Source: a virus
Taxonomy: Duplodnaviria > Heunggongvirae > Uroviricota > Caudoviricetes
DNA: 37,236 bases
Reading direction: 5' to 3' (one strand)
IMG/VR virus record: IMGVR_UViG_2778261175_000003
Position numbers and translations under genes: made by a program. The notes below the pieces were generated by a model. That model was not told the origin of the DNA, made no database searches, and was given only the letters and a program-made list of their open reading frames with translations. Shown one piece after another: positions 4,407 through 33,910 of the stretch (its first letter is position 1; each line of letters begins with the position of its first letter).

Positions 4407-5516
4407 TCATTCTGCTATCCATTCCGGGATTTTTGCCTCAAGCTCAAGCTGTGTGGTAAAGCCGCTGTTATCAATGGTGTGCTCGGCTTTTGCAATAATC
4501 CAGTCCTGATTATCAATCTCGCTTTTAAATCCTGTTACCGTGCCATGCATTTCGGGGTAGAGTTCTGCACGCCCACGTGCCAGCGTGATGGAAAATGATG
4601 CGGCTCCGCGTTGTAGCTGCTGCCACTTTGCCGCCGCTGCGCGTCTTGCTGCCTGCTCGTTTTTAAACGTTTTGCGCATGACGTATACATTGCCGTCTGC
4701 GCCCTCCATGTAATCCCCCTCGCGGCTGCTGCTTTTCTCCTTTTTTGTTTTTTGGGCAGAACCACGTTTCGTCACGCTGACTTTTTTCTTTTTGCCATAG
4801 TCCAGGTCCAGCCAGTAAGCGCGTACCCCCGTGTACGCCTGCCGGTCTGCAATGCGGAAGTGATGGCTGTCACCGCTGCTGCGGGTGATGGCGAATGAGG
4901 GCAGCGGCTTTCCGCTGGCGCTCACCCCCTGTCCGGGCACGATGAAAAGCAGTGCGCCGTTCTTGACGGTGGCTATGGCTCCCAGCATGTCTGCCATACG
5001 CGTGAGAAACGAGATGTCACTTTCCTCCGTCTGGTCGGCGTGGTCGATTTCCACCTCTGCCAGCGAGGCGCTGATTTGCGCCTTCAGCCCGTAGCGGTAC
5101 GCGATGGCAGAAACAACCTGCCCCACCGTCACGTCATGCCAGGACACTTCACGCTTCACGTTGAACTCCTGCCGGAAGTCTGCGCTGCTGGCCGTGATGG
5201 TGAGCCTGTCCGGTGGTCCCTCATGTGTCACCTCGTCAACGATGAAGGTTCCTTTGTCCATCAGTGCCTCACCTTTCCAGCCCAGCGCCAGACCCAGCGT
5301 CTGTCCGCGCTTCGGGAGCTGCACGCTGCCGTCGCAGTCGTCAATCGTGAGGGTTAACTGGTCTGCCTCAAATCCCCGGTTGTCGGTCATCGCCAGCGAG
5401 ATGACCCGTCGGGTCAGCGCCGCGTTTTCCGTGCCCTTAACCGTGATGGAAAAATCAGGGATCTTCACGCACTCTGACAGACCGTTCAGGTATCCGCTTA
5501 CGTCCGCAGGGTTCAT
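4407..5516 (-). CDS. D: Tail protein D (late control gene D family)
   Basis: Protein resembles P2 gpD. Start placed at MNPADVSG (ATG at 5514-5516, GGAGA RBS upstream) rather than the track GTG at 5699. Confidence 0.85.
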   Translation of the reverse strand: MNPADVSGYLNGLSECVKIPDFSITVKGTENAALTRRVISLAMTDNRGFEADQLTLTIDDCDGSVQLPKRGQTLGLALGWKGEALMDKGTFIVDEVTHEGPPDRLTITASSADFRQEFNVKREVSWHDVTVGQVVSAIAYRYGLKAQISASLAEVEIDHADQTEESDISFLTRMADMLGAIATVKNGALLFIVPGQGVSASGKPLPSFAITRSSGDSHHFRIADRQAYTGVRAYWLDLDYGKKKKVSVTKRGSAQKTKKEKSSSREGDYMEGADGNVYVMRKTFKNEQAARRAAAAKWQQLQRGAASFSITLARGRAELYPEMHGTVTGFKSEIDNQDWIIAKAEHTIDNSGFTTQLELEAKIPEWIAE

Positions 5517-24208: not shown

Positions 24209-24268
24209 AACAGGAAGCGCAGGCAGGACGCGCGCGGGTAGCCTGTATGACAGGAGGTGACAGACGGC

Positions 24269-26011
24269 ATGATTCAGGACGCATTCATCAGGCTGCGGGC
24301 AAAACAGCTTTACTGGCAGGGTTACCCGCCCGCTGAAATATCGCGGCTGATGGGTATCAGTCAGAACACGATTTATTCGTGGAAAAAACGCGACGCATGG
24401 GATGAAACGCCGCCCGTGGAGCGGGTTGCGCAGTCGATTGATGCGCGGCTGGTTCAGTTGACCTCAAAAGCTGAAAAGAGCGGCGGTGATTTTAAGGAAA
24501 TCGACCTGCTGACACGCCAGCTCGCAAAACTGCATGGCAACAGGGGCGGAGCGGAAAAAAGTCCGCGAAAACGAAAGCTGAAAAACCATTTTTCCGAATC
24601 GCAGGTTGCCGCACTACGTGAACACATCACCGGTCAACTGGCAGAGCATCAGCGACGCTGGTATGAGGCGCTGGAAGTCTGCCGTCGTGCCGGTGTTGAT
24701 ATTCGCATCATTGTGAAATCCCGACAGATAGGCGCGACCTGGTATTTTGCGCAGGAGGCACTGCTGCGTGCGCTGGATGAGAGCGTGAAATATCCGTACC
24801 AGCGAAACCAGATTTTTTTGTCAGCCTCGCGCCGTCAGGCTTTTCAGTTTAAAGGCGTGATTCAGAAGGCGGCACAGGCTGTAGACGTCGAGCTGAAAGG
24901 CGGTGACAAAATTGTGCTTTCTAACGGCGCGGAACTGCATTTTCTGGGGACATCCGCCGCGACTGCACAGTCATACACGGGCAATCTGTATTTTGACGAA
25001 TTTTTCTGGGTGTCGAACTTCATCACGCTGCGCAAGGTCGCAGGCGCGATGGCCACGCTGAATGGCCTGACGCAGACCTACTTTTCCACGCCGTCATCGG
25101 AGATGCACGAGGCGTTTCAGTTCTGGAACGGGGCGCGGTGGAATGCAGGGCGACCACGCAGTGAGCGCCGGGAGATTGATGTGTCCCATCACGCCCTGAA
25201 GAGTGGCGTGCTGTGCCCCGACAGTGCGTGGCGGCAAATCGTGACGATTCAGGATGCGGTGGACCTGGGCTGGACGCTCACCAGTATCGACAAAATCCGC
25301 AACATGAACACGCCGGATGAGTTCCGCAATCTCTACATGTGCGAATTTGTCAGCGACGGCGAATCCGCCTTCGACCTTAATGCCCTGCTGGGCTGTGGTG
25401 TGGACGGCTATGACGAGTGGAATGACTGGAAACCGTTCGCAGCACGTCCGGTGGGTAATCGTCCGGTGTGGATTGGCTACGACGCTAACGGCAGCAGCGG
25501 TAACGGCGACAGCGGGGCGCTGTCTGTTGTTGTTCCGCCTGCTGTCAGGGGCGGCAAATTCCGCACGGTGGAGACATTGCAGGTGCAGGGGCTGGAATTT
25601 GAAGAGCAGGCCCGTGTGATTGAGCAGTTCACGCACAAATACAACGTGCAGCACATCGGTATCGACGTGACCGGCGGTAACGGTGAGGCGGTGTACCAGA
25701 TAGTGCGGCGGTTCTGGCCTGCCGCCGTGCCGTACACGTTCACGCTGGCATCCAAACGCGCGCTTGTGCTGAAGATGCTGCAGATTATTCGTGCGGGGCG
25801 CTGGGAGTATGACCGGGGCGAACGTGAGCTGGTCAGGGCATTCAACGCCGTGCGCAAGGCGAAAACAGCGGGCGGGGCAATAACGTATGAAACAGACCGC
25901 ACACGCGGCGTGAACCACGGCGACCTCGCGTGGGCAACCATGCTTGCCGTCATTAACGAGCCGCTGGGCGATGAGGATGGAGCAACAGGAATGCGGGTGA
26001 TTGAGTTCTGA
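24269..26011 (+). CDS. P: Terminase ATPase (large) subunit P
   Basis: Strong similarity to P2 gpP. The track GTG start at 24257 overlaps the AGGAGG Shine-Dalgarno sequence, so the ATG at 24269 is preferred. Confidence 0.85.
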   Translation: MIQDAFIRLRAKQLYWQGYPPAEISRLMGISQNTIYSWKKRDAWDETPPVERVAQSIDARLVQLTSKAEKSGGDFKEIDLLTRQLAKLHGNRGGAEKSPRKRKLKNHFSESQVAALREHITGQLAEHQRRWYEALEVCRRAGVDIRIIVKSRQIGATWYFAQEALLRALDESVKYPYQRNQIFLSASRRQAFQFKGVIQKAAQAVDVELKGGDKIVLSNGAELHFLGTSAATAQSYTGNLYFDEFFWVSNFITLRKVAGAMATLNGLTQTYFSTPSSEMHEAFQFWNGARWNAGRPRSERREIDVSHHALKSGVLCPDSAWRQIVTIQDAVDLGWTLTSIDKIRNMNTPDEFRNLYMCEFVSDGESAFDLNALLGCGVDGYDEWNDWKPFAARPVGNRPVWIGYDANGSSGNGDSGALSVVVPPAVRGGKFRTVETLQVQGLEFEEQARVIEQFTHKYNVQHIGIDVTGGNGEAVYQIVRRFWPAAVPYTFTLASKRALVLKMLQIIRAGRWEYDRGERELVRAFNAVRKAKTAGGAITYETDRTRGVNHGDLAWATMLAVINEPLGDEDGATGMRVIEF

Positions 26012-27066
26012 TGAAAAAACAAAAACGAAAACAAACGTATTCCCGCCGGGATGACGGCGGGGATCTGGCAGATGCACTGCGTCATCAGCCATCGTTAAGC
26101 GCTTTCTCGTTTGACGGGCCTTATGATGCGCACGCGCTCGACCTGCTGGATAACGCATACTGCCTGAGTAACGGCAGGTACTACGAAACACCCGTTGACT
26201 GGTACGGGCTGGCGCGGGCATCCCGGCAGACCTCGTGGCATCAGTCGGCGCTGTACTTCAAACGAAATGCCATTCTGGGCTGCTTCATTCCGCACCGGCT
26301 GCTGTCCCGGCAGGCGTTCTCCGCCTTTGCGCTGGACTGGTTTGTCTTCGGGAATGCGTTTCTTGAACTGCGCACCAACAGGCTGGGCGGAAAACTGGAA
26401 CTGCGGCACGCACTGGCGAAGTACACCCGCCGTGGTGTGGAGCCGGATGTGTACTGGTTTGTGCAGACGGGCGAGCAGGATCACGAGTTCCGTCAGGGGC
26501 GCGTCTGTCATGTGCTGAACCCTGACATCAACCAGGAGATGTACGGAATGCCGGAATATCTCGGCGGCCTGTTGTCTGCCAGTCTGTCGCATTCGGCAGA
26601 TCGTTTTCGCAAACTCTACTATGACAACGGTTCACACGCAGGCTGCATTATTTACGTGGGAGCAGCACAGGTTGACCGCGAAAGCATGCAGGCGCTCGAA
26701 AGAGCGTTGCAGGGCGCAAGAGGCGGTGGGGCATTCAAAAACCTGCTGCTCCAGGCACCGAACGGCGGGAAGGACGGTGTGCAAATCCTGCCGTTCCAGC
26801 AGATCACCGCCCGGGATGAGTTTATGAACGTCAAGGCTGCCTCCCGCGATGATGTGCTGGCTGCTCACCGCGTACCACCACAACTGATGGGCGCAATGCC
26901 CAGCGGACAGGGGTCATTTGGTGATGTGGAGAAGGCGGCAAGAGTGTTTGCGATCAACGAACTGATGCCGGTGATGGAGGCGATGAAGCACGTTAATGAC
27001 TGGCTGGGCGAGGAGGTGATCCGCTTTAACCCTTACGCACTGCTGGATACCCCGCCCACATCCTGA
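26011..27066 (+). CDS. Q: Portal (capsid vertex) protein Q
   Basis: Similarity to P2 gpQ; coupled to P (ATGA overlap). Confidence 0.85.
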   Translation: MKKQKRKQTYSRRDDGGDLADALRHQPSLSAFSFDGPYDAHALDLLDNAYCLSNGRYYETPVDWYGLARASRQTSWHQSALYFKRNAILGCFIPHRLLSRQAFSAFALDWFVFGNAFLELRTNRLGGKLELRHALAKYTRRGVEPDVYWFVQTGEQDHEFRQGRVCHVLNPDINQEMYGMPEYLGGLLSASLSHSADRFRKLYYDNGSHAGCIIYVGAAQVDRESMQALERALQGARGGGAFKNLLLQAPNGGKDGVQILPFQQITARDEFMNVKAASRDDVLAAHRVPPQLMGAMPSGQGSFGDVEKAARVFAINELMPVMEAMKHVNDWLGEEVIRFNPYALLDTPPTS

Positions 27067-27506: not shown

Positions 27507-28124
27507 CTAATTATCTTCTGTCTCCTGCCACGAGACTTTTCCGCCAGCCTTTATGATGGCTCGTTCAACATCTCTTTCGTACCGCAAAGGCTGGAATACT
27601 CCGTTAATGAAATACTCCTTTGGGTTCGGGATCTGCACTGTAAATGTGCCACGCTCTGATGTTGGGCGACGCACCTCTTTCTCAAAAGAAAGCGAGTTGT
27701 TATGCATTAACGCAGCATACTTTAGTGCATCCTGTGCTTTCTGAAATTTCAGTGCGTAGTCAGTAGCGATCTCTTCCAGTGCTGCGATGCGCTTACTTCC
27801 ATCCGCGATAACACCTTCGAAATACTCACGCTGCTCGTTGAGTTTTAATTTTACCGACTCCAGTTGTTTTGTTAGTTCTGCAATACGGCAAACATCGTTG
27901 ATACGCGTTTCTTCTAATGCGTTGCTCTCATCCAGTAGCGTCAGCACGGTTTCTGGTCCGGCCAGAAATTTGAAGGCGTTGAGCGCATCAATATCAACAC
28001 CGCTATCTTTAAGTTCCTGTTCGCTTATCAGATCATCATCAACTGGCAACATTAACAGGCGGTCCATTGCCGGAATTGCACGCTCTGCCGCCTCACGCAG
28101 TGCCTGATAGTCAATCTTGCTCAT
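27507..28124 (-). CDS. Coiled-coil protein of unknown function, possibly Ead/Ea22-like
   Basis: N-terminus MSKIDYQALREAAERA resembles the conserved N-terminus I recall for Ead/Ea22-like prophage proteins; ATGA-coupled to the upstream gene. Confidence 0.4.
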   Translation of the reverse strand: MSKIDYQALREAAERAIPAMDRLLMLPVDDDLISEQELKDSGVDIDALNAFKFLAGPETVLTLLDESNALEETRINDVCRIAELTKQLESVKLKLNEQREYFEGVIADGSKRIAALEEIATDYALKFQKAQDALKYAALMHNNSLSFEKEVRRPTSERGTFTVQIPNPKEYFINGVFQPLRYERDVERAIIKAGGKVSWQETEDN

Positions 28125-28711
28125 GGGATAACTCCTTTGTGTTGCGTCAGCTCTTCCTGCGCCTGCATCATGCGATTGACCAGAACGTGCGTGCGTCGAA
28201 CGGAAAAAACAAACAGATTCAAAAGGCGGCGCATCTCTTTGTCCTCATGTCGCGCATGACGGAGAAAGGCAAGTCGGTAGAACTCGGATTCGGCAGCGCG
28301 TTGAATCAACGACAGATCAAAGTGAAGTGCTGGTCTGGTGCATTTTGCGCATCTGGCGGCAAGCTCTGGCATCAATCTCTTAACGAAGGTGTTTTGTACT
28401 GCTTTGTTGAGTTGTGTCTGCATCCAAATCGCAAATTTCAGCGAACGCATGAGCCGGATCGCGTCGGGCAACGGCAGATAGATCATGCTGGCGGTTTTGG
28501 GTAGCGGATGAATCATTTTCACGGAGACGCGATCGCGCAGTGTTCGAAAAATCGTGTTCCCGACAACAGACTCCACGGAGACAGGGCAGGGGGCCAGACC
28601 AACCCGCAACGCGTTCGTCATGAACAGATATTCATCTTTTTTCATCGTGTTTTCCTTAGTGCGGGGGCGACAGTGCGCCCCGATAAAATTAAAAGCCGTC
28701 AAATTCGTCAT
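28121..28711 (-). CDS. Hypothetical protein (174-196 aa depending on start)
   Basis: ORF track; alternative start at MKKDEYLF (28645) with AAGGAAA RBS; no family recognised. Confidence 0.4.
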   Translation of the reverse strand: MTNLTAFNFIGAHCRPRTKENTMKKDEYLFMTNALRVGLAPCPVSVESVVGNTIFRTLRDRVSVKMIHPLPKTASMIYLPLPDAIRLMRSLKFAIWMQTQLNKAVQNTFVKRLMPELAARCAKCTRPALHFDLSLIQRAAESEFYRLAFLRHARHEDKEMRRLLNLFVFSVRRTHVLVNRMMQAQEELTQHKGVIP

Positions 28712-29044
28712 TCATCTTCCTGCTCCCTGCGTTCCTTGTTCTTCTCGGATAACGCTGTTGCACACTTCCACACACTCGTCGCAGATGAAAACGTCGTCCC
28801 CGGAAAATAACTTTTTGACGGCGTGCTGTGGTTTCTTGCAGAAGCTGCAATAAAGCGTTCGCCTGACAGATACGGACGATGTGTAGGATGCCAGCCTCGT
28901 GATGTCGTCCTTGCGACGCAACATCACACGGCAGCACTCAACCAGTTTTTCCGGGGGGATTTCTTCCTCTGTGGCGAGCGCCTCCAGTCGTTCTATCAGA
29001 TGGAGTGCTTTTTCCGGGGGCATTGCAGAATATGCTGTGGTCAT
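28712..29044 (-). CDS. Small protein with C-terminal ClpX-type C4 zinc-binding domain (110 aa)
   Basis: C-terminus [39 protein letters not shown] closely matches the ClpX N-terminal zinc-binding domain ([39 protein letters not shown], from memory). No AAA+ module follows. Confidence 0.7.
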
Positions 29045-29056
29045 CTTCTTTCTCCT

Positions 29057-29257
29057 TCAAAGTTCAGTGTGTTGACAGAGCTGCCCTTTGCGACAGACCA
29101 GTACGCTCCCTTTGCTTGAGTCGGTGATTGTCACCGTGCCGTCATCGCACTGGACAGCGATGACTGTGTTGCTCTTTTCCGTTGTGCAGTTCGGTGTGGC
29201 CGAGTGCGCCAACGGAACGAAAAACAGCGAAAAAAGTAATGTCAGTCTTTTCGTCAT
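29057..29257 (-). CDS. Small secreted protein (66 aa) with signal peptide and four Cys
   Basis: Start at MTKRLTLLFSLFFVPLAHSA with AGGAGG RBS; mature part about 45 aa. Confidence 0.5.
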   Translation of the reverse strand: MTKRLTLLFSLFFVPLAHSATPNCTTEKSNTVIAVQCDDGTVTITDSSKGSVLVCRKGQLCQHTEL

Positions 29258-29332: not shown

Positions 29333-29644
29333 TTATTCTGGGAATAACGCCCTGATGTTTGCGGCCATCTGGCTGGTTGTCTGAGCCTCTGGCGCAGCCT
29401 GTGTTTTGGTTTTTTCTGCACTGACCTGTGTCACGGGTAATGGCTCATCGTCAGCCCATGCAGCCAGCCGGTAAGCCTCTGCCGGATTCTTCTTCAGAAG
29501 CGCCAGTCCGGCCAGAAAAGCCACACGCTGGCCGCTTTTGCGGGCTTCTGGTGTAAGGCTGTCCAGCCAGGCACATGCTTCGCTTTCGTTCTTGACTGCC
29601 GCAGGCTTCAGATAGAAACTTATCCGTCTGGTTGATGTCGTCAT
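29333..29644 (-). CDS. parR: ParR/StbB-like partition adaptor
   Basis: Pattern RRISFYLKP....LDSL.PE.R...RVAFLAGLAL parallels R1 ParR (RRTIAFKLNP....LDSIPQGERSRLNRAALTAGLAL); sits directly downstream of the parM-like gene. Confidence 0.7.
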   Translation of the reverse strand: MTTSTRRISFYLKPAAVKNESEACAWLDSLTPEARKSGQRVAFLAGLALLKKNPAEAYRLAAWADDEPLPVTQVSAEKTKTQAAPEAQTTSQMAANIRALFPE

Positions 29645-29647
29645 GAT

Positions 29648-30607
29648 CTATTCCCTGTTCATGGCGTGGAGACCATTAACCAGAGCAAACTGTGGCACCC
29701 CGTCCGCGATAAAAGTCGCATTAACTCCGCAGGCTTCGCGGACAGCGGGTGCCACAATCTCCGCCCCTCCACCGACAACCATCACCCGCCCGTAACCCGA
29801 AAAGCTCGCCAGCGCGCGGAGTACACGTTGTTTCAGTGTTTCTTCCTTTTCACGAATAACCGCCATCAGGCTGTTGTAATGTGCGTCATTGTGGATGTGC
29901 TGGCGCAGCCAGGCTTCATCATGGCGATGTTCGATAATGGTATTGGCGATGTGGTGACTGGTGCGCATACCGTTAGTGGCCATCACCGACAGTACGGCAT
30001 CGGCCATCAGAGAAACGCCTACGTGTGGATCGCAAAACACCTGGCTGATACCTGCCAGTTGTCCCTGAACCTTTGCCACATCCAGCGTGGTTCCGCCTAA
30101 ATCCACAATCAGCAGGGATTCAAACGGACTCATGTCAGCCAGCGCCTTAAAGCCAGCCGGAATGGATTCAGGCATAACCCGCACGTTACGGATAGTGAAT
30201 GCTTCGCCGTTCTGGTACTCCACCGGGCGCATAACGTTCGCTTTTTTGCGGTTGATGTTGGTCATATCCGGCTGGGCGTTTGTATCGAAATACTCGCTCA
30301 GTGGCAGGGTGACAACCACATCCACCTCCTGTGGTGTGATGCCTGATTTGACCAGCGCGTGATGAATGGCAATGACATTCACATCGCTGTACTGGTATTG
30401 CGTGTCGGTCGTCTGGACAAAGCGATCGCTGACCGGATCAAAACCATAGCGCACGCCATCAAGCATGTAGTTCGCGGGCTGCGTGCCACCGAACGGTGCA
30501 GACCATTCCGACTTGAAGCTGTTCGGGCTGATGGCGTTGCGGCGTTCGCCGTTCTCAGTCCAGGCCAGCTTGATGTTGGTGGAGCCGTCGTCGATACAAA
30601 TTTTCAT
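29648..30607 (-). CDS. parM: ParM/StbA-like actin-family segregation ATPase
   Basis: N-terminus MKICIDDGSTNIKLAW and internal motifs (YSDVNVIAIHHAL, MPESIPAG, LIVDLGGTTLD, MVVGGGAE) match plasmid R1 ParM as recalled. Confidence 0.85.
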   Translation of the reverse strand: MKICIDDGSTNIKLAWTENGERRNAISPNSFKSEWSAPFGGTQPANYMLDGVRYGFDPVSDRFVQTTDTQYQYSDVNVIAIHHALVKSGITPQEVDVVVTLPLSEYFDTNAQPDMTNINRKKANVMRPVEYQNGEAFTIRNVRVMPESIPAGFKALADMSPFESLLIVDLGGTTLDVAKVQGQLAGISQVFCDPHVGVSLMADAVLSVMATNGMRTSHHIANTIIEHRHDEAWLRQHIHNDAHYNSLMAVIREKEETLKQRVLRALASFSGYGRVMVVGGGAEIVAPAVREACGVNATFIADGVPQFALVNGLHAMNRE

Positions 30608-30643: not shown

Positions 30644-30747
30644 GGGATTTTTAAATCCTGTTTTTGCCTGTTTTATGCGCGCTTTATATTTCGCGGCGCG
30701 TTTTTTGCTCATTTACGGGATTTGTGAATCCCGTTTCTGTCTGTTTT
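30644..30747. repeat. Two 31-bp imperfect direct repeats, each with an internal inverted repeat (GGGATTT-N3-AAATCC..GTTT.TG.CTGTTTT), upstream of parM and overlapping the 3' end of A
   Basis: Copies at about 30644-30674 and 30717-30747, separated by an AT-rich spacer; candidate parC-like centromere/operator or part of the replication origin. Confidence 0.45.
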
Positions 30748-33524
30748 TTGTTTCCACTGGTCAGGCCACCCCGCAGCAGGTCTGCTTTGCGGCGGGCGCG
30801 TTCAGTGGTTTCACTGATTCTCTGTGCGTGCTCCGCGTCACGGATGGCGCGCAGCATGTCAGAAAGCACGGTAACGGGGGTTTTCATGGTGTTCTGGTCC
30901 TGCTGAAGTGTGGATGCCAGGCGTGCGGCGGCTTCGGGGTCTGATGCCCCCAGCTGTTCCAGATAGCTGGCGACCGGGTTATGGCGGATCTCCGTGCTAC
31001 TTACGCCGTGATTACGGCTCAGGCGCTGCCAGAGCTGCGTGATTCGGCTGTCCGGGCGGGTATCCGGTTTGCGTACAATTTCAAATCCCTGCGGTGCAAT
31101 GATGCTGCCGTCAACGTACAGACTGCCGCCCCGTAACAGGTGCTGCATCTGTTGTTCACCGATATGCAGGCCGAGAGATTCAGCAGACTCACGCCATTCT
31201 TTAGCGAGTAATTCGTGGTTATCAGGCAAAGGCCGCTGCTGTTTGCAGCTCTGTGTCCAGCTCTGCATTTCATCACTGCTGTTTTTTGCCTGTTTGTCAC
31301 GAAGCGAACGCATCAGCGCCCGGCGTTCGTGCCGTTTCAGTGAGCGTATCCATTCGTTCACTTCAACGCCGTCAGGGAGCTGCGGCCACGGTGCTGACCG
31401 TTCTTCCGGCTGTTCTGTCCCGTTGTTGTCCGTTTCCTGTACACGGGGACAGTTATTGCCACGAGTCCAAGGGGCGGCAGGGCCGCCCTGAAGGTCAAAA
31501 CCATTTTCGCGGGCGCTGTCTTCCGCTTCCGGTTTGCGTCTTACCAGCTTCCAGCTATCCGGATGCGTGCACACACGGGAGGATTCCCCGATGAGTGGTG
31601 ACCAGATCCCGTAAATCTGTACGCTCTGTTCGCCGTAATCGTTCAGCTCATCTGCGAGGTTGTAGGCGGTGCGAATCAGGTAGTCTTTGCGTGGAACAAG
31701 TACGCCACCCTGTTTCTCAATGTAGGTGGCAAAACACCCGGCATCAGCGGCAGCGAGTACCGCATCCATTGCGTCATTTTCCAGACGTTGTGGACCTTCC
31801 GGGTTGCGGGCCATCTGACTGGCAAGGCGGCGGAGTTCACGCCATACCTGACGGGAGGGGATACCAAAGAACTGGAACTGGCGGACGCGGTGAAGACGCG
31901 CCCAGCCGATGGCGCGTTCCACGCTCTCGGCCATTGATTTTCCGGTTTCGTGGTCCACGCGTGGCTTGCCCGTTTTCGGGTCGATGCCATCCACGGCGCG
32001 GCTGTCCAGGTTCTTTCCGATGTAGGTGGCGATGTAGCTGGTTGGCGTGCCTTTTGAGCCGTCGACGTACTCCGCCTTAAAACGCGGAGTTATGTCATCG
32101 CCCAGCTCGTGGCGGTCTTCCAGAATGGCAATATCGCAGACGTGGGACACGATGGTTTCAATCTCGTCAGGATGAGCAAAAACCATCATGTGCCAGTGCA
32201 CCGTGCCGTCATGATGAGGCTCCACCGTGCGGATGCCATACCAGCGCAGGCCGTCGCGGTTCAGTTTTTTGCGGACCGCCGCAAAAAACGTGTTAACCAG
32301 GTAATCGCTGGAGTCGCGCATAGTGGCCCCGTTCCATTTGGGATTCGGATGACCGTTCTCCGTTGTTGCGTGGTATTTTGACGGGCAGGTGACAGTCAGA
32401 AACACCGCTCTGTCGCCACGGGCTTCGGCCAGAAGTTCCAGCCCCTTCATGGTGGCCATCATTTCTGCCTTACGGTGAACCGGGTTACTTACTCCCGCGT
32501 AATACACTGTCTCGAGATCAATCGTGAACCCGTCTTCATTTTCCAGCATGAAACTTTTCAGGAAATCGCGTGTTTTCTCGCGCTGTGCGCGAAACTCGCT
32601 TAACGCGTCCTGGCTCAGATAGGGTGATGTTTTTCTGGAAACCAGACAGGCGGCGCGGAGTTGTTCTTCTCTCCACTCGCAACGTAACAGCCACAGTTTG
32701 CGTTTCCACCATTCCGCACAGGTCAGGCGAAGGATTGCGCCCGGCAGCAGCTCCGTGTCCGGTTCGTTCCTCCGGTCTTTGTCTGTTGTCAGTGCGTCAT
32801 AATGTGGAGGCGTGGCGTGCAGGTGTAACGCCATGCGGGCCAGCATCTGATACGCCTTCAGCGTTACATCCATGGTCAGTTCGCCATCAGTCGCGCCAAA
32901 GCCATCGCAGAGTTTTTCGAAGGTGCTGCTGAACATCGCCGCCGTCATGGTGGCCAGCGTCTGTATCTGGTGTTTGTTGAGCTGCGGCAGGTAAAGCAAA
33001 TCGTCCAGGCGTTCGCGTCCGGCAAGGGAGCGATAACCCGGTGTCAGCCAGCGGTGATCGGTGCGGTCCAGACGTTCGAATATTTTGCGCAGGGTTCCGC
33101 GCGCGTAGCGTTCAGCCTGCCAGCTCTTTTTGCCTTTCTGGCGATCGGCTTCCTGTTTTTTGCGCAGGAAAGAGAGGTGGCGGCTCAGTGGTTCACGCAG
33201 ATAAACAGGTAGTGCCTTTAGTATGGCAAAGGCACGGGCTACCGGGTCTTGTTCTGTTGCCCGGCGCTTACTGATGATGCTCTGTGCCAGCTTTTCACGC
33301 TGTCCGGCTTCCTCAAGGGATGCCATGAGTTTTTTACCCATGGCAGATTGTGCGAAAAAGGCTTCTTCCTTCGCTTCCTGTTCTTCCTGTGCCCTTTTGT
33401 CCGCCTCAAGGTAGTAACGGATGGCGCGTTGCAGGTCGGTTTCAGTTTCCTGCCTGCGCTCCGTAAATCTGGCCGGATCAATGGCTGGTCGTGGTTCATT
33501 CCAGCTCCATGCAAACTCACTCAT
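30684..33524 (-). CDS. A: Replication initiation endonuclease A (rolling-circle, HUH-type)
   Basis: Very long ORF with HUH motif (TVHWHMMVFAHP) and tyrosine pair (YIATYIGKN). Start at MSEFAWSW (ATGA overlap with the upstream gene). Longer than P2 A as I recall it. Confidence 0.8.
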   Translation of the reverse strand: MSEFAWSWNEPRPAIDPARFTERRQETETDLQRAIRYYLEADKRAQEEQEAKEEAFFAQSAMGKKLMASLEEAGQREKLAQSIISKRRATEQDPVARAFAILKALPVYLREPLSRHLSFLRKKQEADRQKGKKSWQAERYARGTLRKIFERLDRTDHRWLTPGYRSLAGRERLDDLLYLPQLNKHQIQTLATMTAAMFSSTFEKLCDGFGATDGELTMDVTLKAYQMLARMALHLHATPPHYDALTTDKDRRNEPDTELLPGAILRLTCAEWWKRKLWLLRCEWREEQLRAACLVSRKTSPYLSQDALSEFRAQREKTRDFLKSFMLENEDGFTIDLETVYYAGVSNPVHRKAEMMATMKGLELLAEARGDRAVFLTVTCPSKYHATTENGHPNPKWNGATMRDSSDYLVNTFFAAVRKKLNRDGLRWYGIRTVEPHHDGTVHWHMMVFAHPDEIETIVSHVCDIAILEDRHELGDDITPRFKAEYVDGSKGTPTSYIATYIGKNLDSRAVDGIDPKTGKPRVDHETGKSMAESVERAIGWARLHRVRQFQFFGIPSRQVWRELRRLASQMARNPEGPQRLENDAMDAVLAAADAGCFATYIEKQGGVLVPRKDYLIRTAYNLADELNDYGEQSVQIYGIWSPLIGESSRVCTHPDSWKLVRRKPEAEDSARENGFDLQGGPAAPWTRGNNCPRVQETDNNGTEQPEERSAPWPQLPDGVEVNEWIRSLKRHERRALMRSLRDKQAKNSSDEMQSWTQSCKQQRPLPDNHELLAKEWRESAESLGLHIGEQQMQHLLRGGSLYVDGSIIAPQGFEIVRKPDTRPDSRITQLWQRLSRNHGVSSTEIRHNPVASYLEQLGASDPEAAARLASTLQQDQNTMKTPVTVLSDMLRAIRDAEHAQRISETTERARRKADLLRGGLTSGNKKQTETGFTNPVNEQKTRREI

Positions 33525-33910
33525 GGCTGGTATCCCGTCACGCGCTGCCACTCCTGCAAGAAGATGGTGGAAAGGCGGTTAAATTCAGCGGTGTATTCAC
33601 TCAGCGAGACACACCCGCCAGCAGTGCGATGCGCCAGCATTGCCGCAAATACGGAGGCCGGGGAGTCGTAATACGCCAGCAGTGATTCGCCGTGCGGTGT
33701 CAGGCAGTGCAACGCCAGTCCGTGTGGTGTGAAGTCCACGCGGTAGCAGTCGTCTACTGTGAAATAAAGGGTATCCACATTCTCCGGTTTTGTGGTGCGT
33801 GCTCTGTTGTCACGACCACGAATGTAGAGATCAAATAATCCCCGAAGAATGGGAGCCAGACGGGTGTCCTGTGTGCGCACCCATCTTGTGAAGTCATGAG
33901 CGTCAATCAT
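33521..33910 (-). CDS. Hypothetical early-region protein (129 aa)
   Basis: ORF track; translationally coupled to A; no family recognised. Confidence 0.45.
   Translation of the reverse strand: MIDAHDFTRWVRTQDTRLAPILRGLFDLYIRGRDNRARTTKPENVDTLYFTVDDCYRVDFTPHGLALHCLTPHGESLLAYYDSPASVFAAMLAHRTAGGCVSLSEYTAEFNRLSTIFLQEWQRVTGYQP

Follow-up and report, generated by a model that had tools for sequence, protein, structure and literature searches.

Gene organization of the accessory slot

The window, i.e., the whole stretch of 37,236 nucleotides analysed here, is a P2-like E. coli prophage of the P88 group (Xuanwuvirus, Peduoviridae), with tail genes that are about 82% identical to those of phage P88. 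An integrase and an HTH repressor are situated at its right end. Between the genes for the replication endonuclease gpA and the portal protein lies a string of genes on the minus strand, and this string includes a complete ORF for a stand-alone ClpX-type zinc-finger protein of 110 amino acids. The genes and signals of the locus are, by coordinate:

24257-26011: terminase gene, converging on the minus-strand string
26011-27066: portal gene, converging on the minus-strand string
27507..28124 (-): Ead/Ea22-like gene (Pfam PF13935, E = 2.6e-20), last of the cargo string
28121..28645 (-): basic orphan of 174 aa, downstream of the zinc-finger gene
28712..29044 (-): stand-alone ClpX-type zinc-finger gene, complete ORF with ATG start, 110 aa
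29052..29057 (-): Shine-Dalgarno sequence AAGGAG, read directly from the sequence, 7 nt before the zinc-finger ATG
29057..29257 (-): ORF of 66 aa (PHROG 20764, unknown function), upstream of the zinc-finger gene
29333-29644 (-): StbB/ParR-like partition gene (Pfam Plasmid_stab_B)
29648-30607 (-): ParM (Pfam StbA_N/ParM_N), which opens the accessory slot together with StbB
30684-33551 (-): replication endonuclease gpA, 955 aa
35901-36212: HTH repressor

On the minus strand, transcription would proceed from gpA through ParM, the StbB/ParR-like gene, the 66-residue ORF, the zinc-finger gene and the 174-residue orphan to the Ead/Ea22-like gene. The original prediction had placed the zinc-finger gene in an accessory slot, and this agrees with its position between gpA and the portal gene, an interval that constitutes a P2 hotspot validated for anti-phage systems, and that harbors a partition system in about one quarter of P2-like phages (Rousset et al. 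2022, PMC9122126). Phage P88 has the same layout, with the zinc-finger homologue gp19 following ParM/StbB. The ORF of the gpA cluster comprises 955 residues also in two related viral contigs (L086 and L087), and 940 residues in P88.

The AAGGAG sequence that precedes the zinc-finger gene overlaps the stop codon of the 66-residue ORF. This ORF occurs only in window-type prophages, where it separates StbB from the zinc-finger gene. It starts at an internal methionine of an ORF of 89 residues, and has the look of a Sec signal peptide (MTKRLTLLFSLFFVPLAHS/ATPNC...) and four cysteines. On the other side, the stop codon of the zinc-finger gene and the likely start of the 174-residue orphan are separated by a 66-nt gap, which contains a perfect 6-bp GC hairpin (GGGGCG-6 nt-CGCCCC, positions 28664-28681). 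Because no T-run follows on the coding strand, the hairpin is unlike an intrinsic terminator.

The start codon of the Ead/Ea22-like gene overlaps the stop codon of the orphan (ATGA). The orphan itself has a pI of 10.5 and homologues in E. coli and Shigella only, and could not be assigned to any Pfam, PHROG, NCBIfam, or PADLOC family. An AF2 model of the protein is all-helical (pLDDT 64, pTM 0.68), and a Foldseek search with this model returned no PDB fold match.

A ClpX-type zinc-binding domain without an AAA+ module

The zinc-finger protein consists of two domains that are connected by a linker:

28742..28852 (-): zinc-binding domain, residues 65-101, treble-clef C4 finger (Pfam PF06689)
28883..29017 (-): N-terminal three-helix domain, residues 10-54 (AF2 helices, pLDDT 83-86)

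That the protein ends in a ClpX-type C4 domain, as originally proposed from the ORF, is borne out by the Pfam profile zf-C4_ClpX (PF06689), which matches over positions 2-39 of its 39 positions with an E-value of 2.1e-16 and a score of 60 bits, compared with a gathering score of 27. The top matches among all PDB chains (phmmer) are the E. coli ClpX zinc-binding domain entries 2ds5 and 1ovx (E = 6e-15). The zinc ligands are spaced as in ClpX (C66-x2-C69-x18-C88-x2-C91), and all four cysteines are invariant in family alignments of 24 and 33 sequences; loss of these cysteines among relatives had been named as an outcome that would speak against the assignment. In the AF2 model of the full-length protein (mean pLDDT 77.5, pTM 0.37, linker pLDDT 59), the predicted zinc domain superimposes on 2ds5, 2ds6, and 2ds8 at 1.6 Å over 38 residues. 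We infer that the phage domain, like that of ClpX, binds zinc and dimerizes.

Equally in line with the original prediction, the AAA+ module is absent. The ClpX equivalog models TIGR00382 and NF003745 score 45.6 bits (cut-off 370.75) and 44.8 bits (cut-off 359), respectively, the matches are confined to residues 62-106, and the protein ends at residue 110, nine residues past the zinc domain. The two genes downstream of the zinc-finger gene give no AAA+ signal either. With a pI of 6.1 (5.3 for the N-terminal domain), the protein is slightly acidic, which argues against DNA binding.

Divergence of the zinc-binding domain from cellular ClpX

The domain was originally described as nearly canonical, which is correct as far as fold and zinc ligands are concerned; the surface is another matter, since the window protein and E. 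coli ClpX agree at only 26 of 41 positions, and several residues that never vary in cellular ClpX are substituted. As reference for cellular ClpX we used 80 alphaproteobacterial clpX genes (loci L006-L085), retrieved by the sequence pattern ICDECV. Together with E. coli ClpX, their zinc domains amount to 12 distinct sequences, and the alphaproteobacterial (sphingomonad) domains match that of E. coli at 36 of 41 positions. Judging from these sequences, the ClpX zinc-binding domain is almost frozen across Proteobacteria, and this is the baseline against which the fast-evolving phage copies stand out. Within the phage family, identity to E. coli ClpX amounts to only 19-33 of 41 residues. The P88 subfamily is near the upper end, with 31-32 of 41 identical residues (76-78%), including a 15-residue stretch that equals ClpX save for one aspartate-to-asparagine change.

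In the numbering used in the ClpX literature, the positions that are invariant in ClpX and variable in the phage family are Gly18, Ser20, His22, Glu23, Pro31, Leu42, Asp45, and Ile46. The zinc ligands, Phe16, Lys19, Gly30, Ile35, Glu38, Val40, and Ile47 are fixed in the phage family, as is the hydrophobic core of the domain. Surface residues shared with ClpX at Lys19, Gln21, Val24, and Lys26-Gly30 also remain conserved. Regarding the pocket residues, Phe16 (Phe68 in the window protein) is invariant and Ile46 is conservatively replaced (valine or isoleucine). Leu42, Asp45, and Ile46 fall on one face of the C-terminal helix according to helical periodicity, and Gly18 is located next to Phe16 in the zinc knuckle; on these grounds, rather than by measurement in a structure, the variable positions appear to ring the hydrophobic Phe16/Ile46 pocket. 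In ClpX, this pocket overlaps the λ O binding site, and the same region is bound by trigger factor, SspB, and RssB (PMC7804408). Given the identity of 19-33 of 41 residues in the family, and 26 of 41 in the window protein, the range of ligands may be shifted away from that of ClpX.

An orphan N-terminal domain

In the AF2 model, the N-terminal domain is composed of three helices (residues 10-26, 31-43, and 45-54), and the charged residues Arg19, Glu21, Glu26, Glu27, Arg44, and Asp47 are invariant in the family. When residues 1-62 were compared with 1.84 billion representative proteins using phmmer, nine matches were obtained at E ≤ 0.001. Seven of these are small proteins of 55-119 residues, most of them with a ClpX-type zinc domain following and the rest truncated; the remaining two are proteins of more than 1,200 residues with weak and partial matches, and only the seven small ones were retrieved. 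Searches of Pfam and PDB with a profile of the domain yielded E-values of about 0.005-1 at best, Pfam scans of 11 family members revealed no identity for the domain outside the family, and Foldseek searches against PDB and BFVD matched only the zinc domain. In the Pfam, PDB, and Foldseek comparisons, the part of the protein outside the zinc domain showed no sequence or fold relation to the ClpXP adaptors and anti-adaptors SspB, RssB, and IraD/IraM/IraP. From the sequence searches and the predicted model, residues 1-60 are thus best described as an orphan three-helix domain found in this zinc-finger family only.

Pairwise dN/dS values are mostly below 1 in both halves of the protein, which shows purifying selection. 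The values are 0.15-0.5 for the N-terminal domain and 0.2-0.9 for the zinc domain, so that constraint on the former equals or exceeds that on the latter. These numbers bear on an alternative in which the zinc domain merely provides a scaffold for dimerization or a peptide clamp, the N-terminal domain works on a target unrelated to ClpXP, and the likeness to ClpX reflects ancestry. Such a role would agree with the family-specific and more tightly constrained N-terminal domain, with a zinc-domain surface that has drifted at positions unchanging in cellular ClpX, and with the ClpX N-domain being an autonomous dimerization unit (PMC7226468, PMC5415555). It accounts less well for the retention of the central pocket and of the surface residues Lys19, Gln21, Val24, and Lys26-Gly30, and the 76-78% identity of the P88 subfamily to the E. 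coli domain is beyond what a bare scaffold should need. We regard a pure scaffold function as unlikely.

With 33 distinct relatives, dN/dS mostly below 1, and an N-terminal domain specific to the family, the gene is real, and neither a chance ORF nor a remnant of clpX. A truncated or pseudogenized clpX was considered separately and rejected: the zinc domain is located at the C-terminus, a conserved orphan domain precedes it, dN/dS is mostly below 1, and similarity to clpX is lacking at the DNA level. The latter was evaluated by blastn for both subfamilies in 5,426 complete E. coli genomes, and no similarity between clpX and the DNA of either was detected; accordingly, the copy dates back a long time and was not taken from the host recently.

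Family relationships and distribution

The original prediction presented the protein as a discovery. This does not hold, because RefSeq already has a name for the family, which also corresponds to a PHROG and appears in a published table. Residues 1-104 align with positions 1-104 of the 107 positions in PHROG 6797 (unknown function; E = 2.2e-45), and an NCBI protein (P0001) that is 99% identical to the window protein is named “ClpX C4-type zinc finger protein”, as are dozens of relatives. Table S5A of Rousset et al. 2022 (PMC9122126) lists arrangements of the type “StbA + Plasmid_stab_B + zf-C4_ClpX + hypothetical”. A ClpX entry was not found in the supplementary file that apparently holds the curated systems of that study, and the paper reports no test. 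A full-text literature search returned no functional study of zinc-finger proteins of the PHROG 6797 type. The protein is thus a member of an annotated, functionally uncharacterized phage family and not a new kind of element; what is new here is the orphan N-terminal domain, the divergence of the zinc domain from cellular ClpX, and the absence of a conserved gene partner.

Many RefSeq records carry an older label, “carboxylate--amine ligase”, for zinc-finger proteins of 107-110 residues, and the members in D6 and P88 (L001, positions 5001-5321; L002, positions 4983-5315) are labelled in this way. The label is an annotation error.

By blastn, 194 of the 5,426 complete E. coli genomes carry the gene when the window gene is used as query, and 221 when the P88 gene is used, i.e., about 4% of the genomes carry a member of the family. 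Roughly half of the copies reside in P88-like prophages at the slot between gpA and the portal gene, and the other half on phage-plasmids of 90-110 kb (the D6/P1 type and a type of about 108 kb). The family is accordingly found on three unrelated backbones in one host group, namely P88-like prophages, D6/P1-like phage-plasmids, and the phage-plasmids of about 108 kb. On the phage-plasmids, the gene is surrounded by extended series of early accessory genes rather than placed in a hotspot.

Neighboring genes

Clustering of the neighbors at 19 loci shows that the gene next downstream is of three unrelated types. In five window-type loci it is the 174-residue orphan, which is absent from this position in the other subfamilies. 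P88-type prophages have a protein of 104-112 residues that is unrelated to the orphan, and the phage-plasmids have DUF551/Ead-like proteins. The sole recurrent neighbor belongs to the Ead/Ea22-like family, which is abundant throughout such regions, and no conserved partner gene exists across the 19 loci.

A possible arrangement to be considered is that the zinc-finger gene and its immediate downstream neighbor form a two-gene module, either similar to a toxin-antitoxin system or serving in defence. In favor of this, the slot is a validated anti-phage hotspot (PMC9122126), the downstream gene is tightly coupled (by an ATGA overlap in P88-type loci and by close packing in the window), and an acidic small protein followed by a basic orphan of 174 residues looks superficially like a toxin-antitoxin pair. 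Against this stand the unrelated versions of the downstream gene in the different subfamilies, the absence of PADLOC matches in the string, and the early accessory runs that house the phage-plasmid copies outside any hotspot. Because the downstream partner varies, a two-gene module is disfavored, and we consider it very improbable. More specifically, the idea that the two genes make up a type II toxin-antitoxin pair was rejected, as the downstream genes are unrelated among subfamilies. A known anti-phage defence system was likewise rejected, since the seven slot proteins gave no match in PADLOC-DB v2 at E ≤ 0.01.

The absence of a fixed gene partner and the variation of the downstream gene, combined with a common host group for otherwise unrelated backbones, would fit a self-contained protein that is aimed at a shared host component.

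Comparison with related proteins

The closest structural relative is the N-terminal zinc domain of ClpX (PF06689; PDB codes 1OVX and 2DS5-2DS8), which has the same fold, ligand spacing, and hydrophobic core as the phage domain. The context is different. In ClpX, the domain is N-terminal in an AAA+ unfoldase of 424 residues, whereas in the phage protein it is C-terminal in 110 residues. The phage protein has neither the AAA+ module nor the IGF loop, and surface positions that are frozen in ClpX vary.

Full-length homologues are found in phage P88 (gp19, 48% identity), where the gene occupies the same slot after ParM/StbB, and in phage D6 (orf93, 66% identity). Both differ from the window protein in the zinc-domain surface and in the downstream neighbor. 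Other stand-alone phage zinc fingers of the ClpX type belong to PHROG 12435 and PHROG 5259, e.g., a “Clp protease” of 65 residues in Pseudomonas phage PP9W2. These match residues 55-100 only, with a much weaker similarity (E-values from 1e-8 to 3e-4), and since the matches cover just the finger and the profiles have only 65-70 positions, the proteins appear to lack the N-terminal helical domain.

With respect to possible function, a comparison can be made with the small phage proteins RexB, PinA, and gp4.5, which damp a host ATP-dependent protease and thereby affect the stability of antitoxins or replication proteins. By analogy, a similar effect is proposed for the zinc-finger protein. The three proteins have no relation in sequence or fold to the zinc-finger protein, and none of them mimics a domain of the target protease.

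Proposed mechanism

Reportedly, Wojtyra et al. used the isolated ClpX zinc domain as an inhibitor in trans in vitro in 2003. Like the phage protein, the isolated zinc domain is free of the motor, and it offers an experimental model for a decoy; it is a laboratory fragment of ClpX itself, however, whereas the phage protein occurs in nature, has diverged from ClpX, and is extended by an N-terminal domain. The free zinc domain dimerizes on its own, and when present in trans at 5-20 μM it inhibits the RssB-dependent degradation of σS by ClpXP (PMC7226468). The N-domain of ClpX is needed for recognition of MuA, FtsZ, and adaptors, and is dispensable for ssrA (PMC5415555). Phage-encoded blockers of host proteases are also known: RexB of phage λ counteracts ClpX/ClpA-mediated degradation of λ O, Phd, and MazE (PMC11077077), and T4 PinA and T7 gp4.5 act against Lon (PMC10286901).

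Inhibition by the free zinc domain, together with the precedent of phage protease blockers, leads us to favor, tentatively, a model in which the phage protein is a dimeric competitive decoy or modulator of the branch of ClpXP proteolysis that depends on adaptors and the ClpX N-domain. We consider this the best explanation for the observations, by analogy with the systems above. A short linker joins the acidic three-helix module to the zinc-binding treble-clef domain, and the protein would probably act as a dimer. The zinc domain would bind some of the short hydrophobic or basic peptide motifs that are also bound by the ClpX N-domain, which as a dimer captures the tails of adaptors (SspB, RssB, trigger factor) along with the substrates λ O, MuA, and FtsZ. 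Ligands would then be pulled away from ClpX, resulting in selective, competitive damping of the adaptor- and N-domain-dependent branch, while substrates of the ssrA type that are recognized by the pore should be left untouched. The N-terminal module could add a second specific contact or extra oligomerization, and in this way provide higher affinity or a narrower set of targets.

The pay-off for the phage might be that ClpXP-labile phage or plasmid proteins are stabilized, such as replication initiators and antitoxins like Phd. Alternatively, toxin-antitoxin defences triggered by proteases might be blunted, or rivals that depend on ClpX, such as Mu, might be hindered.

The original prediction that the free domain could compete for ClpX adaptors or substrates, or heterodimerize with host ClpX, is plausible and has published precedent, but ignores the N-terminal half of the protein. 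A simple mimic of ClpX is weakened by the drift of surface positions that are invariant in ClpX, by the N-terminal domain that defines the family, and by the lack of any sign of recent clpX capture. For a decoy in general, it should also be noted that the published inhibition in trans requires micromolar amounts of the zinc domain.

A different way to engage ClpXP would be as an adaptor in trans that delivers a target for degradation, where the N-terminal domain holds the target, and the zinc domain either pairs with that of ClpX or docks on the AAA+ ring. A binder and a ClpX-related module on a flexible linker (pLDDT 59, in a model with pTM 0.37) resemble tethering adaptors, and tethering to the ClpX zinc domain suffices to induce degradation, as demonstrated for CLIPPERs (PMC12373786). 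However, the zinc domains of ClpX are reported to be constitutive dimers, such that any exchange with a free domain is hypothetical, and known adaptors offer a peptide to the zinc domain and carry no copy of the domain themselves. An adaptor function seems quite improbable.

Returning to the decoy or modulator, the architecture also permits a more specific and more doubtful version, in which the protein would represent a viral “decoy N-domain”: a copy of the ClpX docking domain with a private targeting module and a fast-evolving pocket rim, by which the N-domain-dependent branch of ClpXP is reprogrammed. We rate this version as possible rather than probable. In such a case, σS, replication initiators, or antitoxins might be stabilized, or ClpX-dependent rivals such as Mu blocked, and the protein would provide the first example of a phage antagonizing a protease through mimicry of one of its substrate-recognition domains.

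If the decoy model in its general form is correct, ClpX would join the few host proteases with which temperate phages are known to interfere (Lon; ClpP-dependent proteolysis), and the protein would constitute a compact natural tool for distinguishing, in vivo, the ClpXP proteolysis that depends on adaptors and the N-domain from direct recognition of degrons. Since about 4% of the complete E. coli genomes carry a copy on prophages or phage-plasmids, RpoS levels, toxin-antitoxin stability, prophage induction, and competition between phages in clinical and livestock strains might all be affected. If the model fails, the gene encodes a small accessory protein, and the practical gain is the correction of the “carboxylate--amine ligase” label.

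Plasmid-sized records with the partition genes

The ParM/StbB region of the window also occurs in two records of plasmid size, NZ_CP148288.1 (34,461 bp), which is annotated with a replication endonuclease, and NZ_CP049283.1 (26,762 bp), which has no annotation under the match. Persistence as plasmids has been speculated by Rousset et al. on the basis of the partition cargo, and the plasmid-sized ParM/StbB records suggest that P2-like elements of this kind are able to persist in such a form.
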